Shown piece after piece: positions 17,976 to 42,426 of a stretch of DNA of 54,864 nt. The notes under the pieces were generated by a model that was not told where the DNA came from, made no database searches, and saw only the letters and a list, made by a program, of their open reading frames with translations. A program made the translations under genes and the position numbers. Position 1 is the first letter of the stretch. Every line of letters starts with the position of its first letter. The stretch is taken from positions 62,001 to 116,864 of the IMG/VR virus record IMGVR_UViG_3300009667_000002, one strand, 5' to 3'. This stretch comes from an uncultured virus (IMG/VR IMGVR_UViG_3300009667_000002). Its lineage: Duplodnaviria; Heunggongvirae; Uroviricota; Caudoviricetes.

Positions 17976-18983
17976 ATGAGAAAATTAGCGACAATTGAAC
18001 GAATTACAAAAATTGCTCCTATTGATGGTGCAGATAAAATTGAATTAGCAAGTATTCTTGGTTGGAATGTTGTTATAAAAAAAGGCGAATATAATGTTAA
18101 TGATTTAGTTGTATATTGTCAGATTGATTCAATACTTCCAGAGAAACCAGAATTCGAATTTTTAAGGAATTCAAAATTTAGAATTAGAACAGTTAAATTA
18201 AGGGGTCAAATATCACAAGGAATTTGTTTTTCATTGGCAATACTACCAAACGAAATTCAAGAATATATTCATAAAACTAAAAATATTGTTGGTTATGATG
18301 TAACAGAAATACTTGGTATTATTAAATATGAACCACCAATACCTGCTGAATTGTCGGGTGAAGTTAAAGGTAAATTACCATCATTTTTTCAAAAAACAGA
18401 TGAAGATAGAATTCAAATATTACCAGATATTCCATTAACATATGGTGGTCAAAGTTTTATTGTAACCGAAAAATTGGATGGTTCTTCCTGTTCTTTTTAT
18501 TATAATAATGGTGATTTTGGTGTTTGTGGTAGGAAATGGGAATATGTTGAATCTGAAACAAATACAATGTGGAAATTTGCAAAAGAAAATGATTTAAAAA
18601 ATAAATTTAGAAATTTAGGTCGGAATTTAGCATTTCAAGGAGAAGTTATTGGTGAAAATATTCAAAAAAATAAATATAAACTAAAGGGTCAAACGGTTAG
18701 ATTTTTTAGAATTTTTGATATTGATAGGTATGAATATTTACCCTATGAAGAAATGTGTGAATTAATTAATGAATTGAAATTACAAACTGTACCTATTATT
18801 GATTGGAATTATAAATTACCAAACACAATGGAAGAAATATTAGAATATGCCGTTGGTAAAAGTAAATTAAATCCACAGACGGAAAGGGAAGGATTGGTTT
18901 TTGTTAAGTATGAATTGAAAAATCAGGGTAGATTGAGTTTTAAAGCAATTTCAAATAAATTTTTGATTGATAATAAGGAATAG
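17976..18983 (+). CDS. ATP-dependent RNA ligase, DRB0094-like (N-terminal OB module and nucleotidyltransferase)
   Basis: MRKLATIERI...IDGADKIE N-terminus, motif I TEKLDG, FQGE, EGLV, FKAIS. Confidence 0.9.
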   Translation: MRKLATIERITKIAPIDGADKIELASILGWNVVIKKGEYNVNDLVVYCQIDSILPEKPEFEFLRNSKFRIRTVKLRGQISQGICFSLAILPNEIQEYIHKTKNIVGYDVTEILGIIKYEPPIPAELSGEVKGKLPSFFQKTDEDRIQILPDIPLTYGGQSFIVTEKLDGSSCSFYYNNGDFGVCGRKWEYVESETNTMWKFAKENDLKNKFRNLGRNLAFQGEVIGENIQKNKYKLKGQTVRFFRIFDIDRYEYLPYEEMCELINELKLQTVPIIDWNYKLPNTMEEILEYAVGKSKLNPQTEREGLVFVKYELKNQGRLSFKAISNKFLIDNKE

Positions 18984-27578: not shown

Positions 27579-28049
27579 ATGAAAAACATTAAAAATATAG
27601 TTAATTCTATAATTCAAGAATATTTAAACGAACAAGAATCTAAACAGCATGATTTTTTTAAAAAAGATATTACTGGTATGGCATTTTATGATGATATAAT
27701 TCATAATAGAAATAATAAATTTAATTTAGAATATAAAATTGTTAATTTATTAATTGATGATTATTTCAAACTAATTCATGATGAAAATGGAATATTTCAA
27801 TCTAAAGAATGGCATTTAAATAATAAAAATTCCATGTTAAACGAAAAAATATTTAAAATAGTAGAAAATATGAAAAGGGGTATTAAATATGATATCCCTG
27901 TTTATGATTTTAGAGATGGTTTTCAAGAAGGTAGGCATAGATTAATTGCTGCAAGTATTTTAGGATGTAATTTTGCTCCAGTTGCATTATTTGGATATAA
28001 TATTGATTTGGAGTTAAAAATAAATGGTATTAAGGTTTATAATAATTAA
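27579..28049 (+). CDS. Leader-tagged protein with ParB/sulfiredoxin-like domain
   Basis: MKNIKNIVNSIIQEYLNE; IPVYD...QEGRHRLIAASILG...PV. Confidence 0.65.
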   Translation: MKNIKNIVNSIIQEYLNEQESKQHDFFKKDITGMAFYDDIIHNRNNKFNLEYKIVNLLIDDYFKLIHDENGIFQSKEWHLNNKNSMLNEKIFKIVENMKRGIKYDIPVYDFRDGFQEGRHRLIAASILGCNFAPVALFGYNIDLELKINGIKVYNN

Positions 28050-28058
28050 TATAATATT

Positions 28059-28703
28059 ATGAAAATTATAAAAGAAATTATTATTAATACAATTCAAGAA
28101 TATCTAAATGAACAACAACACGTAAATAAAACCTTTCTTTGTGTTGATATTCAACCAGAATATAAAAATTATATTACTTTTAATATATATGAATGGGTTG
28201 AATATATTAATAATAATATAGACAATAATAATATTGTTTTACTTTATAATGGTTATGATAGTTTAGGAATGATTACTGAATATGATTACGTTGAATGGTT
28301 GTATAATATTGGAATGGAAAAAAACACAATTGATAATTTAATTTTTTATGATAAGGGATATGCTTTTTTTAGATATTGCATAGATAATCAAATAGAAGAA
28401 GATATTATTGTTAGTTTGGTAAGATATATGATAAAAAATGATATTACTGATAGTAGAGATATTAATAAACCATTATGGGAAAAATATATAAAAGAAAATA
28501 CCAATTTAAATACCAATGAAATTAGAGAATTATTGGATATGGCTGGTGATATGATATATATTCCTGATTTGGTGGATGAATTAAAAAAATATAATAATAT
28601 CGTTCTTATGGGTGGTGGTAAGGATGAATGTCTTAAAGAAGTTGAAATTGCATTAAAAGCAATTAATAAACCATACCAAAAAGAAAATAGGTTTATTTAT
28701 TAA
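28059..28703 (+). CDS. Leader-tagged isochorismatase/nicotinamidase-like cysteine hydrolase
   Basis: MKIIKEIIINTIQEYLNE; LCVDIQ, YDKGY, IVLMGGGKDECL give a D-K-C triad pattern. Confidence 0.55.
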   Translation: MKIIKEIIINTIQEYLNEQQHVNKTFLCVDIQPEYKNYITFNIYEWVEYINNNIDNNNIVLLYNGYDSLGMITEYDYVEWLYNIGMEKNTIDNLIFYDKGYAFFRYCIDNQIEEDIIVSLVRYMIKNDITDSRDINKPLWEKYIKENTNLNTNEIRELLDMAGDMIYIPDLVDELKKYNNIVLMGGGKDECLKEVEIALKAINKPYQKENRFIY

Positions 28704-30325: not shown

Positions 30326-30356
30326 TTTGTTTTTTAAAAAATATTCATTAATTTTG
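30326..30356 (+). promoter_or_regulatory. Bacteroidota sigma70-type promoter
   Basis: TTTG 30326-30329, 19-nt spacer, TAATTTTG 30349-30356. Confidence 0.6.
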
Positions 30357-30402
30357 TTTTTTAGATTTTGGAAAAATTATTAACAATAAAAAACATATTG
30401 TC

Positions 30403-31344
30403 ATGAAAAAAAATTCATTAACACCAAACAAAGGCTTGAGTTTATCACAAGCACAAAGTATTTCTAATCTTTGCTTTCAAAAAGCAAGTGAAATTGATAT
30501 GCAGTTAAATAGCATTAACAATTCAAGTAAAAAAATTAAAGTAGATGGTGAGGAATTAACACTTGTTAATGGTACACCAATGCCCGATAATATTATTGAA
30601 TTGCTTGAACTTAAGGCTAAATTACATGCTTGTCAAGCATTTTTAATGGAAAATATTAAGGCTAAAGATGCCATGTTGAATGAAACTATGACAACATCTG
30701 CTGATATATCAGATATTGAAGAACCAAAAAAACCAGATTTAATTAATTCTCATGCTAAATTTCTTCCTAAAGTTAATGAAAGGTGGGGATGGGAACAATT
30801 ATGCGTATCAGATATAAATGAATATCTTGAATCGGAAGCATATGCAGCACATATTGGTCAATTTATTCATAAAGATGGTGTTTTGCATAATTTAAGAAAT
30901 GAATTAAAAAACATTAAACCTGTTGAATGGATGGAAATTAAATCTGGTGAAAAAACACCTGTTAAAGTGGAAATTCACCATACACAGGATAAACTTTTTG
31001 ATATTCATGAAAAATTATCGGCATTGCATCGTAAACATGAACAACGTGTTAACTATTTTAAATCCATTGTAAAAAATTTGGTGACAAATGAAAATGCAAG
31101 AATTGCAAAACATAATACAGAAATTCAAATTGAAACAGAAGCATTAAATCAAAAAATGAATTCCGAATATAAAATTGCAATGGATGAATATACTGAAAAA
31201 ATAAAAACAATTCAGAATGAATTTGAAATTGAAAGACAAAAAAGAATTAAAGAAATTGTTTCAATGAGAATTTCAGTTGATGAAAGATTTCAAGAAATCA
31301 TTGATATGTTTTTATCTGAAATTAAGGATGATAGAAATGAATAA
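30403..31344 (+). CDS. Alpha-helical/coiled-coil protein of unknown function, adjacent to a structured RNA
   Basis: 313 aa; GLSLSQAQSISNL, LHACQAFLMENIKAKD, EAYAAHIGQFIH; C-terminal coiled coil; less compositionally biased than neighbours. Confidence 0.75.
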   Translation: MKKNSLTPNKGLSLSQAQSISNLCFQKASEIDMQLNSINNSSKKIKVDGEELTLVNGTPMPDNIIELLELKAKLHACQAFLMENIKAKDAMLNETMTTSADISDIEEPKKPDLINSHAKFLPKVNERWGWEQLCVSDINEYLESEAYAAHIGQFIHKDGVLHNLRNELKNIKPVEWMEIKSGEKTPVKVEIHHTQDKLFDIHEKLSALHRKHEQRVNYFKSIVKNLVTNENARIAKHNTEIQIETEALNQKMNSEYKIAMDEYTEKIKTIQNEFEIERQKRIKEIVSMRISVDERFQEIIDMFLSEIKDDRNE

Positions 31345-31353
31345 TTAATAAAT

Positions 31354-31635
31354 AGAGTTGAATGGTAAATAAAGCACAAGCCGAGTTTACCATTCTTTAT
31401 GTTTAGCAATACGTTCTTTATTTAATTAAATTTTATCATTAGCATAAGTGGTAAATGTTTGACAAACATTTTTTTTTTAAACCCGCTTCTCTCACAAAAA
31501 TTTTTATATTATATGATGATTATTAATCATCAAATTGTAAGACTTGGTTTTTGATTTTGTCCTTGGGTGAGAGAAGGTCTTTGACGTTGCTTTTGATTTT
31601 TTCTTTAACTATATAACGTATTGCTAAACAACTCT
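31354..31635 (+). ncRNA. Candidate structured ncRNA (about 280 nt, nested long-range stems)
   Basis: Perfect 16-bp stem 31400-31415/31615-31630; 10-bp stems 31360-31369/31386-31395 and 31486-31495/31567-31576; closing AGAGTT/AACTCT. Confidence 0.7.
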
Positions 31636-31653
31636 TTTAATATCATAAAAATA

Positions 31654-31923
31654 ATGAAAGAAATCACAAAAAATAGAAAATTCGACCATGTTAAAGTTTT
31701 TGAAAAACTAAAAGAGTTTGGGTTTAGAAAAACTGGTAAGGAATTATATCCACTATATTTTAATAGTAGTAGTAATATTATTAGTTATTATATGGCAAAA
31801 AAAGAAACACCAGAAAAAAAAGGTGCGTTTGTTTTTATTCATAAAGAAAATAGATTATATGCATATTCTTTTGAAGAAATTGAAAATGTTTATTTAGAAT
31901 TATTGGAATTAATAAAAAAATGA
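31654..31923 (+). CDS. Hypothetical protein
   Basis: ATG 31654 preferred; the track's TTG 31621 lies inside the RNA stem. Confidence 0.55.
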   Translation: MKEITKNRKFDHVKVFEKLKEFGFRKTGKELYPLYFNSSSNIISYYMAKKETPEKKGAFVFIHKENRLYAYSFEEIENVYLELLELIKK

Positions 31924-32291: not shown

Positions 32292-34076
32292 ATGAATGAA
32301 ATAATTGCATATCATGGTAGTTATGAGCATTTTTTGAAGTTTTCTGAAAATAAAATAAAAGCAAATAAAGAATTACATTTAGGTTGGGGTTTTTATTTTG
32401 TGGATAATCCACAAACTGCTCTTAAGTATGGAAATTATATATATAAAGTTAAATTGTTCAATAATAAGAATCATTACCATTTAATTGACTTTAATAAACC
32501 AATAGAACCAAATATTTTATATAACATATTAACATCCCTTTATTATAAAATTAATAGAAAAAAAATAAACTATGATAATTTTAAATTATTATACAACATA
32601 GAAAAAGAAATTGAAAATTTTAAAAATAAAATTTGGAATGAATTGGTAAAAATAGATAGTGATTTAAATATGTTGACCTTTTCTGAAGTATTTGATACGG
32701 ACAATAAAAATTCTTGGTTTTATATATCTAACTATATTAATAATAATCAAATTAATAAATTATGTAATAAATATTATTCTTTATTAAATATAAAAAACAA
32801 TAAAAAGATATTAGATTTTAACCTTCATGATATTGGTTTTCTTATTTATAAAAAAATATCACATTTATTGAATGGTGATAAAAATGCATCTTTATTTTTA
32901 TTAAAAAATGGAATTGATGGGTGTATGGATATTCTATCTGGATATAAATATTATTCTATTTTTAATTCAAATGATATTAAAATAGTAGAAATAAAAAAAT
33001 ATAAACAAAATTATATGAAAAATATTATCAATGAAATTGTTGTGGATTTTTTTCAACATAAAAATTTGTTAATTGAAAATTTACAATTAGCAAATAAAGT
33101 TTATTTTAATACTGGTAAACTAACTGAAGAAGATAAAAATATTATTTTAAATATTACTAATGGTGATAATTATACTAAAATAATTTCTGATTTTTATTAT
33201 GAAATGAAAAAAACAAAACAATTAGATAAATTAGATTTTAATTCAATTATTGATTTGAAATTTTTATATAAAGATGTTAAAACATACAATAAAAATGTTT
33301 TTCCTATTGTTGGATTTGATGTTTTTAATATTAATCCAAATGATATTGATGTAATCATGAGAAGTTTATATAAAAGACGTTTAATAATTCAAAAAATAAA
33401 AGATTTACCATCAATTGCCATTAGAAATTTAAAAAATGATATTCGTAAAGAAAGAATAATTTCCCAATTAGATACTTATTTACATAATTTAGATTATTTT
33501 TTTGCACACTATTCATTATTATCAAATAGAGATAAAAAAATGCAAGAAAAAATACTAAATAAAATGTTCAAAAATAATATAACATTATCAGAATTACTTA
33601 GTTTTGTTGAAGATAAACAAAATTTAATTGGTGGGGTTGAATTTACAAAAGAAGATATTATCGAATTATCAAAAACAGAAGATTTTGAAATTATATATAA
33701 TCATGATAATAAAATGATTGTAAGGGTTGATTCACCCGAAGGGATTAAAAAAATTGGTTGCAATTCATTATGGTGTTTTACCTATGGCGGTGGTTTTGAT
33801 AGAGCATATAGAGATTGGTATGCTTTTAGTCATAACGATATGGTTTATGTTATTATAGATTTTAACAAAAATTCTGATTCTGATGATTTTATGCATGTTT
33901 TAATTAAACCATTGGTTGACGAAGATGGAAATTTAATTGATTTTGACGATGATGATGATTATCCTCTATATACCATGACTAACGAAAATTATTGGAATCC
34001 ATATTCAGTATTAGAATATTTGTTTGGTAAAGATTATAAAAAAATTATCTATAATTATCTTAATTTCGAAAATTAA
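32292..34076 (+). CDS. ADP-ribosyltransferase-like domain joined to a second leader-bearing protein with a GCNSLWC (PcfJ-like) motif
   Basis: AYHGS...LGWGFYFVDN..TALKYG...GIDG...YSIFN; internal MKNIINE...LLIE at 33015. Confidence 0.6.
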   Translation: MNEIIAYHGSYEHFLKFSENKIKANKELHLGWGFYFVDNPQTALKYGNYIYKVKLFNNKNHYHLIDFNKPIEPNILYNILTSLYYKINRKKINYDNFKLLYNIEKEIENFKNKIWNELVKIDSDLNMLTFSEVFDTDNKNSWFYISNYINNNQINKLCNKYYSLLNIKNNKKILDFNLHDIGFLIYKKISHLLNGDKNASLFLLKNGIDGCMDILSGYKYYSIFNSNDIKIVEIKKYKQNYMKNIINEIVVDFFQHKNLLIENLQLANKVYFNTGKLTEEDKNIILNITNGDNYTKIISDFYYEMKKTKQLDKLDFNSIIDLKFLYKDVKTYNKNVFPIVGFDVFNINPNDIDVIMRSLYKRRLIIQKIKDLPSIAIRNLKNDIRKERIISQLDTYLHNLDYFFAHYSLLSNRDKKMQEKILNKMFKNNITLSELLSFVEDKQNLIGGVEFTKEDIIELSKTEDFEIIYNHDNKMIVRVDSPEGIKKIGCNSLWCFTYGGGFDRAYRDWYAFSHNDMVYVIIDFNKNSDSDDFMHVLIKPLVDEDGNLIDFDDDDDYPLYTMTNENYWNPYSVLEYLFGKDYKKIIYNYLNFEN

Positions 34077-34099: not shown

Positions 34100-34618
34100 A
34101 TGAGTAAAGATATTAGAATGATGATTGATAAAATCAAAAATTTAAAACCTGTTATAAATGAAAATATTAATAACATAAAGACATTATATCATGGTACTTC
34201 TGATAATAAAAAAGAATTTCAAAATGATGATATAATTTTTTTATCAACATCATCAACATTTGCAAAAAAATATGGTGATAAACTATTAATTATAAAAGCA
34301 GATTTGGGTAATGTTTTTAATTCTTTAGAATTTAACGATATTCAATTATTATATAAAAACGGTTTTAAATTATATGACCCAAATGTAGATGAAGATTGGG
34401 ATGATATTGGATATGATTTTAATAAAGAAAATTTTAGAACAGCAAAAGCATTTATAAATTCACCAACTAATAATAATACATGGGATGCCATTGAAAGTAC
34501 AGAAGGTGTTATTGATTGGATATTTAATAATGGTTTTGATTCAATATTAGTAACCGAAGATAATATAGAAAACTATATTTGTAAAAAAAATAACATTAAA
34601 TCAATTGAGAATTATTAA
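34100..34618 (+). CDS. Leader-tagged ADP-ribosyltransferase-like protein
   Basis: MSKDIRMMIDKIKNLKPVINE; LYHGT, IFLSTS...AKKYG, GFDSILVTE. Confidence 0.6.
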   Translation: MSKDIRMMIDKIKNLKPVINENINNIKTLYHGTSDNKKEFQNDDIIFLSTSSTFAKKYGDKLLIIKADLGNVFNSLEFNDIQLLYKNGFKLYDPNVDEDWDDIGYDFNKENFRTAKAFINSPTNNNTWDAIESTEGVIDWIFNNGFDSILVTEDNIENYICKKNNIKSIENY

Positions 34619-41026: not shown

Positions 41027-42426
41027 AAACGATAATTACTGATAATCATATCATTCTGAAAGAGAATCACAATACAAAGATACTGACATATACTGACATA
41101 TACAATGGTAATCATATCATTCTGAAAGAGAAACAAAATGTCCCGTAAAATATAATTCTGAAAGAAAAAAATATCTTGCAAGACAAAATGTCCTGTAAGA
41201 TGTCCTGCAAAATGAATATTTATATTTTTCTAAAAAGAAATTATAATTCTTGTGATATTAATATTAATAATTTTATTATCCTTATTAAAAAATAAATATA
41301 ATTAATATGTCAACTATTTTCTGCGATTTAATTGACAAATTAATTTAAAATAATTATATAACAAAACTATTTTAATTTTATAATAAAAAAATAAGAATAA
41401 AAGTGCATTACCTTGCACTTTATATTGATAATGTTAATTATTTTGAACAAAATCATAATAAATGTGCAATATATTGCACTTTATAAAAAAAAATATAAAT
41501 TATACTATTCTAAAAAAAACATAATATTTCTTTTTATTTTATTATAATATGAAATTAAACTTATTAACATGGACATTAACATGGACATGTTGTCCATGTT
41601 AAAATATTATTTTTTATATTACCGTAGAACTACAGTAGAACTATAGTAGAAGTTATTTTAAATAAACTTCATTATTTGGATTATTTTTACTTCCCTATTT
41701 GTCAAAATATAAATATAAAAACCATTTTCCTGATATCAAGAAAATGGTTTTTTATAATAAAATAACATTATATTGTGATTTTATTCTTTAATGATAGATA
41801 TTACATTGATATTACATTAAAATAACATTATATTGTGATTTTGTGGTCGCAATTTGCGACAAGATAATATCATTATTTTTATAAAAAAAATATCTCTGTT
41901 TTTTTGTACTATAATTATACTTTTTATTGAAATTAATTATTAAATTAACTATAAATTATACTTACTTAAACTAAAAATAATACAATTGATTATCAGTATA
42001 ATATACAGTAATATCTTAATGTTTTAAATATAGACAAATACAAAATTCCATTTTTTACCATTTTTTACCACAAATTACCACTAAAAATAAAGGTATTTTT
42101 GTAGCCCCTACACCCACATCTTCTCTTACTTTTTATTTTTTTAAAAAGTTATTTTATAAAAAATTATAAAAAGTTTATAAATATTAAATTTTATAGAATA
42201 TCAAATCTGGACATTTAAAATATTTATAATTAAAGCACATTAAATTGATATTGATGATATAATAATATTTGGACATTAATTTGGTAATATCTGGACATTT
42301 ATGCTGTACATTGTTGTAATATACTTAATGGTATAATACTAATTAGTATAAAATTTATTTCTTGCATATTTTGCGTTGAATGGAATAATTATTCGTTGCA
42401 AAAATAATGGGAATATGATATATTTT
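41027..42426. repeat. 1.4-kb non-coding, repeat-rich region at the convergent strand switch
   Basis: Direct repeats of 24 bp (41043, 41109) and 25 bp (41758, 41818), 10-12-nt tandem repeats, several palindromes; no credible ORF. Confidence 0.8.

Follow-up and report, generated by a model that had tools for sequence, protein, structure and literature searches.

Type III toxin-antitoxin systems use an upstream array of short pseudoknots, which is cut by the toxin, as the antitoxin, with a terminator placed before the toxin gene. TRAP and HutP are oligomers that read short, evenly spaced motifs on mRNA leaders and control termination or translation. Few machines made of RNA and protein have been described in phages, and it was signatures of the kind described below that led to recent examples, VIPR among them. 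According to the accessible part of its report (10.64898/2026.04.26.720920), VIPR consists of ~100-nt RNA arrays of 5-nt GGY/NN units with hypervariable NN positions, and of an RRM/RAMP protein that coats its RNA. ROOL and GOLLD are structured phage RNAs of unknown function that are often found near tRNA islands; in the available text of PMC12286853 they are described as larger RNAs (GOLLD often >800 nt) that form RNA-only cages, ROOL without a known protein partner.

We analyzed a window of 54,864 nucleotides, the last part of a 116,864-bp virus record (23% G+C, estimated to be 38% complete), and within it a gene for a 313-aa protein followed by a structured RNA. We found that this RNA is a conserved, covarying, expressed and discrete species that is bound in its occurrence to one protein family. 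We propose, with a probability of about 0.45, that the pair is a phage-encoded ribonucleoprotein of a new kind that protects or supports phage translation against RNA-cutting defences of the host. The locus contains the following features, all on the + strand.

30326..30356, +, promoter-like site of the Bacteroidota type: TTTG (30326), 19 nt, TAATTTTG (30349-30356), called from sequence, motif enrichment and the Bacteroidota consensus
30403..31344, +, 313-aa protein belonging to a large phage family that has no annotation: two predicted helix/beta-hairpin/helix units and C-terminal helices, pI 5.8
31349..31640, +, putative mature RNA of ~289 nt, ends at 31349-31352 and 31637-31640 taken from a single circular contig
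31363/31365 to 31618/31630, +, alternative mature RNA ends in other runs, from RNA-seq contigs
31354..31359, +, 5' arm of P1: pairs with 31630-31635 and joins both RNA ends, with an invariant G-C pair
31360..31395, +, P2 hairpin: conserved internal loop and small GC-ACAA-GC apical hairpin
31400..31415, +, 5' arm of P3: 16 bp with 31615-31630, sequence varying and pairing retained
31486..31495, +, 5' arm of P4: conserved CG before the arm, pairs with 31567-31576
31541..31564, +, hexamer tract 1: four G-n-Y-n-U-u units without indels
31567..31576, +, 3' arm of P4, between tracts 1 and 2
31577..31612, +, hexamer tract 2: six units, fixed length, near-invariant CUAU at the end
31615..31635, +, 3' arms of P3 and P1

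The first-pass annotation, made from the letters alone, had described a host-type promoter, a helical protein and, 9 nt past its stop, an ORF-free element of nested stems without a recognized RNA class. The arrangement is as described, with the ORF (plus stop) at 30403-31344 and AGAGTT at 31354 beginning 9 nt beyond the stop. The element is free of ORFs except at its 3' arm, which is overlapped by a TTG-started ORF (31621-31923) whose first ATG lies at 31654. The spaced elements TTTG and TAATTTTG match the Bacteroidota promoter consensus, and the motif TAnnTTTG occurs within 120 nt upstream of the gene at 17 of 64 loci of relatives, against a shuffled mean of 4.2 and maximum of 12. Scans for sigma-70 promoters and terminators performed no better than chance. 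Together with the label of one MAG, the promoter motif points to a Bacteroidota host, which is thus suggested but not established. No tRNA or tmRNA was detected in the window by ARAGORN, and Rfam 15, with its models for ROOL, GOLLD, tRNA, tmRNA, introns and riboswitches, gave no match in it at gathering threshold. When the element was searched alone the best E was 1.1, and no Rfam match covered the element in five homologous loci.

Elsewhere in the window, positions 41027-42426 form a region of ~1.4 kb at a gene-orientation switch, whose + strand lacks ORFs of at least 70 aa and which contains several short tandem duplications and inverted repeats; it is possibly a replication origin or a regulatory region. 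The ORFs at 32292-34076 and 34100-34618 have weak, below cut-off similarity to ART-PolyVal ADP-ribosyltransferases. Two adjacent ORFs (27579-28049 and 28059-28703) have a common N-terminal motif, I..IQEYLNEQ, suggesting a shared targeting peptide.

The region 31340-31660 folds at -75.8 kcal/mol (z = -5.1), a stability reached by none of 100 shuffled sequences. Its 16-bp stem is unique: nowhere else in the 116,864-bp contig do perfect inverted repeats of 16 bp occur at an arm distance of 20-300 nt. All six pairings named in the first-pass annotation are perfect Watson-Crick matches at the coordinates given there, two of them being hairpins that we checked as 8-bp arms. The stems are thus present as proposed, except that A31630 was used in both the outer and the 16-bp stem, so that one of them is one pair shorter, while the two perfect hairpins (31453-31471 and 31514-31532) lie outside the conserved core, in regions of variable sequence and length. 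This core comprises P1, which closes both ends, P3, P4 and P2 with its conserved internal loop; P1, P2 and P3 meet at a junction, and P3 and P4 make up a long rod. Length is free to vary among relatives both in the inner domain and in the 5' loop (~51-116 nt).

Covariation of the stems, which the first-pass annotation had called for, was evident, with 30 of 33 pairs changing on both sides in 20 hand-picked sequences. In these sequences, pairing was retained in 89.5% of cells compared to 69.5% after shuffling and 41-51% after sliding, the slide control being favourable by design because the structure was derived from the same 20 sequences. Cognate arms paired better than non-cognate arms, both for P3 (0.90 vs 0.64; 36 arm pairs with a mean identity of 46%) and for P4 (0.97 vs 0.73; 31 arm pairs). 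A further helix proposed by RNAalifold, AGACUU/AGGUCU, had no compensatory change and was rejected. The molecule is a + strand RNA, because G-U pairs exceed A-C pairs (51 vs 7 in P3; 14 vs 2) and because cUUCGg loops are found only on the + strand (16 vs 0 in 63 RNAs).

We then asked how closely the RNA follows the gene, scoring RNA copies with a position weight matrix. Among viral loci, it follows the gene in all 74 with enough downstream sequence (of 80 loci, 6 end too soon; the 74 comprise 63 distinct loci and 11 duplicates, one of them our own genome). Among metagenome loci it was found in 66 of 66, after 14 of 80 were dropped for having <400 nt downstream. In 65 of these 66, tract 2 scored >20 bits and in the remaining one 19.3, compared to a reverse-strand maximum of 6.2. 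Homologues thus do carry the conserved downstream structure. Usually the RNA lies right behind the stop codon, and sometimes beyond a small ORF, up to ~750 nt away. Searching for the RNA first yielded 71 loci: in 68 the gene is at most 2 kb upstream, in two the sequence stops within 100 nt, and in the last the gene is found on the same strand ~5 kb upstream, followed by a hairpin of its own. The viral, metagenome and RNA-first sets share contigs and are therefore not independent.

The same RNA plan was found in PQ006092 and 32 further viral loci of full length, hence in all 33 loci of a distant clade of ~100-kb gut phages, whose proteins are 23-25% identical to ours (profile E ~1e-43), and in 17 of these loci a tRNA-like gene lies 5-6 nt past the RNA. 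Linkage was examined in this clade and in that of our own protein. Wherever the sequence permitted the test, neither partner was found alone, down to ~24% protein identity and with differing flanking genes. The co-transcribed protein-RNA pair of the first-pass annotation thus stands as far as the RNA is tied to the protein family; that co-transcription is obligatory is doubtful, given the phage whose gene sits ~5 kb upstream, ahead of a separate hairpin, and the small ORFs that intervene at several loci. In the assemblies of two loci, L062 and L079, the RNA is intact next to a gene interrupted by a premature in-frame stop or a frameshift.

The stretch is present in 20 RNA runs from 18 studies, many of which are from activated sludge in 2017 and may be one campaign. 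We examined four RNA-seq assemblies (X1, X3, X10 and X19), leaving out four runs with a share of 0.00. The region is transcribed, as had been predicted, in all four, and in three of them the RNA forms a separate and deeper contig. In X1 this contig covers 31365-31618 at a depth of 875.6, compared to 7.53 for the gene contig, and in X10 it covers 31363-31630 at 89.5 compared to 7.8. In X19, a 319-nt contig corresponds to a closed 289-nt cycle (31349-31637) at a depth of 15.8 compared to 6.8 and 2.5. In X3, a strain variant extends to 31819 at a depth of 8.85, reading through into the next gene without a discrete contig. The RNA thus appears highly expressed, contig depth being a rough and strandless measure of expression that may include DNA. 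The closed contig was found in one of the four runs, and the 3-nt microhomology at its junction means that template switching may explain the circle, which is possibly an artefact. If real, the circle would result from ligation that closes P1 with a 7-nt loop, and one may speculate that the sealing enzyme is the RNA ligase with a PHA02142 OB-fold encoded at window positions 17976-18983.

The first-pass annotation overlooked the most informative feature of the element, which is the pair of hexamer tracts. They lie on the 3' strand of the RNA, flanking the P4 arm, and are the only runs of at least four such units in the contig. No indels interrupt the tracts, and tract 2 keeps an almost constant distance from the point where P3 ends. 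Across 111 distinct copies, the unit has a purine at position 1, a pyrimidine at position 3 and either U or G at position 5. On a minimum spanning tree, changes at position 5 are between G and U in 35 cases, with one C-U and one A-U change, and changes at position 1 are between A and G in 51 cases compared to 6 others. The tracts are spaced 37 nt apart in 74 copies and 36 nt apart in the other 37.

Several explanations for this regularity were rejected. The tracts do not code on either strand: there is no synonymous excess (synonymous/non-synonymous changes of 112/393 in antisense and 92/368 in sense), the spacing breaks the frame and stops occur in the sense direction. Sites that would be synonymous in antisense are fixed in 110 of 110 cases, and of the 194 Val-type triplets within the tracts, 123 are GTC, compared to 3% in genes. 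Speaking against this rejection, the antisense frame is free of stops in 86 of 86 cases, over both tracts, with a near-invariant TAG at the edge, and its translation is a basic S/T/A/P-K/R/M peptide. The two tracts do not covary as pairing partners of each other, and for pairing with opposite loops of the same RNA or with the mRNA, cognate partners were no better than controls. Folding programs leave the tracts only about half unpaired, A-rich partners being available. Nor are the tracts hypervariable guides, since their variable positions differ at 0.065-0.08 per site compared to 0.136 at the gene's third codon positions (17 pairs with proteins at least 90% similar). As the tracts behave neither as codons, nor as pairing strands, nor as variable guides, we infer that a protein probably reads them, and their sequence pattern suggests that a repeating binder does so base-specifically. 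That position 5 accepts U and G and excludes C would fit recognition of the keto/imino edge. The reader could also be a host protein instead of the phage protein.

The 313-aa protein has 2,116 relatives among 3,146 candidates, and profile searches place the family in 734 clusters at 50% identity. It is almost only viral, with 2 matches in 185,579 species genomes of cellular organisms, searched with patterns from close relatives, and a single distant record among 50,697 GenBank phages. Sequence searches of Pfam, PHROGs, PADLOC, NCBIfam and PDB with the protein gave nothing above cut-off, and the ESM Atlas returned just an unnamed viral cluster. An AlphaFold2 model (pLDDT 85.6, pTM 0.76) consists mostly of long helices, as the earlier description of a helical protein would have it, together with two beta-hairpins; helix/beta-hairpin/helix units are predicted at residues 14-97 and 135-248, followed by C-terminal helices. 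That the two units are an internal repeat is unsupported (hhalign 0.4%).

Foldseek found no match to the model in PDB at E<=0.001, the BFVD fold search returned only a member of the same family, and VIA-wide searches, run with the whole model and with its N-terminal unit, yielded nothing beyond generic helical hairpins (Z<=8.8). Neither a known RNA-binding fold nor, among the listed matches of the model, a RAMP was found in these searches; absence from the lists searched does not prove that the predicted fold is new. The protein is slightly acidic (pI 5.8; 44 K+R vs 52 D+E). The residues that hardly vary among 150 diverse members of the family are for the most part polar: S13, S21, N22, Q26, K86, K88, H156, R165, H209, E213, N217, K220, N225 and N231, which may contact RNA bases. 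A homotrimer prediction scored 0.19 against a mark of 0.42, which counts neither for nor against an oligomer.

A tRNA or tmRNA is present in 62 of 84 loci scanned, one of which is not a family locus, and none is nearby in the window itself and in 22 of the 84. Recurrent neighbours, in clusters each named from one representative, are HNH (27 loci), metallophosphoesterase (25), AAA_33 (20), RNA ligase (20) and TROVE (5) genes, found mostly within one group of related phages that share synteny; in the window none of them adjoins the gene. Genes downstream of the RNA are unrelated between loci. At one locus from the cluster of five (L061, 4340-5920), the TROVE (Ro60) gene begins directly past the RNA. 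Ro60 is known to bind Y RNAs. Upstream of the gene, one locus in the gut-phage clade has a phage-encoded tmRNA in a tRNA island (L085, 2175-2562), and at another ARAGORN calls a suppressor tRNA, tRNA-Stop (L058, 2252-2326). No reverse transcriptase was found among the inspected neighbour clusters or the 32 ORFs scanned in the window, in line with the first-pass annotation. Matches to the RVT_1 profile remained below cut-off in our own contig (38% complete) and were absent from five related genomes, four of them at least 90% complete. The weak match in our contig was rejected, being below cut-off and inside an unrelated 610-aa ORF. This ORF (L081, 757-2589; ~39.5-41.4 kb of contig G000:C1, outside the window) has no Pfam match at E<=0.001 and resembles what we take to be a glycosyltransferase interrupted by an intein-like insert.

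We consider it likely that the RNA is processed from a longer transcript and that its tracts are lined by copies of the protein, which read their bases. In such a scheme, excision would release the RNA from that transcript, and P1 would keep its two ends together, possibly for ligation into a circle. Several protein copies would then align on the tracts. Each would use conserved polar residues of its helices (S21, N22, Q26, K86, K88, H156, R165, H209, N217 and K220) to read a purine, a pyrimidine and a U/G, one at every second base. More tentatively, the particle would act during infection in the arena of translation and RNA repair, where its most probable role would be to inhibit host defences that cleave tRNA or mRNA, or to serve them as a stable decoy. 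The linkage, covariation, + strand, RNA-seq depth, base rule of the tracts and tRNA/RNA-repair neighbours argue for this reading. The acidic protein, the lack of a match to a known RNA-binding fold, the two units not being detectably homologous and the read-through in X3 count against it, as does an RNA-repair context that comes largely from related phages, with the window and 22 of 84 loci lacking a nearby tRNA. A bolder form is doubtful: a circular phage non-coding RNA, sealed by a phage RNA ligase in the 7-nt loop and coated along its ~ten hexamers by a protein of new fold, would form an abundant particle whose every-second-base code serves to read or block a conserved target in the host (tRNA, ribosome or defence RNase), making it a new class of phage ribonucleoprotein common to jumbo and ~100-kb gut phages.

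The strict linkage of gene and RNA, together with RNA contigs that are deeper than gene contigs, would also be compatible with a toxin-antitoxin-like pair of the type III mode, in which a toxic protein, for example a His/Arg-based RNase, is neutralized by excess RNA and serves in superinfection exclusion or competition between phages. Despite the two tandem units of 36-37 nt and the conserved H156, R165 and H209, we regard such a pair as unlikely, as the RNA lies downstream in one nested fold rather than in an upstream array of pseudoknot repeats, no toxin was matched in PADLOC, Pfam or NCBIfam, and the family is nearly absent from cellular genomes (2 of 185,579, with close-relative patterns). 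It is no more probable that the RNA works without the 313-aa protein, either as a decoy that engages a host protein or in the manner of ROOL and GOLLD, with linkage reflecting a shared pathway. In that case the acidic protein, the 5 kb between gene and RNA in one phage and a tRNA-island location resembling that of ROOL and GOLLD (available text of PMC12286853) would be readily explained, but partners that are never apart where this is testable, at ~24% protein identity and with changing flanking genes, would not.

The tracts themselves invite further explanations. With ~ten repeats, alternating fixed and variable bases and a structured RNA beside a single phage gene, they recall VIPR as presented in the accessible part of its report (10.64898/2026.04.26.720920), and could be a non-contiguous guide in which the protein clamps the fixed bases and positions 2, 4 and 6 read a conserved nucleic-acid target. 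This is clearly improbable, given variable positions that are not hypervariable (0.065-0.08 vs 0.136 at third codon positions), a period of 6 rather than 5, one tract pair instead of an array in our contig and no RRM/RAMP match among the listed results of the fold searches. Still less credible is a cryptic template, either for a basic antisense (S/T/A/P)-(K/R/M/T) peptide made by a DRT2-like or rolling-circle route, or for a tmRNA-like hydrophobic tag in sense. The possible circle and the stop-free antisense frame (86/86, both tracts, with its near-invariant TAG) would suit it, whereas the missing synonymous excess, would-be synonymous sites fixed in 110/110, a frame broken by the 37/36-nt spacing, stops in sense, no RVT_1 above cut-off in our contig (38% complete) or five related genomes and a longest stop-free run on the circle of 42 codons all speak against it. 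Finally, a position directly past the stop codon in most loci and the read-through in X3 could reflect a cis-acting 3' element that stabilizes or regulates the gene's mRNA, or a leader of the next gene. We give this very little weight too, since the RNA forms a separate, deeper contig in three of four runs, downstream genes are unrelated, ORFs are inserted up to ~750 nt and in one phage the gene is 5 kb away.

The ribonucleoprotein reading, if correct, would concern a widespread pair (734 clusters at 50% identity) whose RNA plan is kept across ~24% protein identity, whose repeat code and protein match nothing in the libraries searched, and whose locus is small (1.3 kb). A circle, if real, would be an unusual phage-encoded circular RNA, and if the pair does counter tRNA-cutting defences it would represent a new counter-defence principle. 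In the literature searched we found no description of the gene-RNA pair, which may be an anonymous motif in supplements outside that search. Short motifs of the RNA are absent from the searched supplement parts of PMC10690425 and PMC8040213, and the accessible part of the COMPASS report (10.64898/2026.10.21.760802) describes no 6-nt cluster; the RNA could be listed in the remaining supplements or among the COMPASS clusters of that report.

How, then, does the locus compare with known systems? By the searches and comparisons run, it belongs neither to an Rfam family nor to VIPR, type III toxin-antitoxin systems, retrons/DRT or tmRNA. ToxIN and TenpIN share with it one protein gene, an adjacent RNA in excess and ~36-nt repeat units; the difference is a single downstream RNA with covarying long-range stems. 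No repeat array was found upstream of the gene in the window, and the toxin families ToxN, CptN and TenpN gave no match above cut-off in Pfam, NCBIfam or PADLOC. DRT2 and retrons resemble it in that their non-coding RNA likewise holds a tract of fixed length flanked by helices, but here no RVT_1 was found beside the RNA or in related complete genomes, and there is no coding signature. For tmRNA, ARAGORN and Rfam were negative, the frame between the tracts is not kept and in-frame stops occur. The predicted helix/beta-hairpin/helix units have the order of secondary structure of prefoldin, at Z 7.5-7.8 and rmsd 3.9-6.2, values tied with dozens of unrelated helical hairpins and thus not evidence of homology; one of 58 family members matches the Prefoldin_2 profile (E 0.0035).

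The likeness to TRAP and HutP lies only in the proposed mode of reading repeats, with no match in sequence or fold. With ROOL and GOLLD the locus shares a structured phage RNA and a tRNA-island setting, and differs in an RNA of ~290 nt that is tied to one protein family and carries hexamer tracts. With VIPR, as far as the accessible part of its report goes, it shares a minimal phage locus with ~ten repeats of alternating fixed and variable bases, and coating of the RNA by protein, shown there and proposed here. Neither GGY/NN 5-nt repeats nor hypervariable guide positions were found; the units are instead 6-nt R-n-Y-n-U/G-u, conserved by position, inside a nested rod and beside a predicted helical protein. 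By analogy, we propose that VIPR or TRAP may come closest in working mode, and that the setting resembles that of ROOL and GOLLD.
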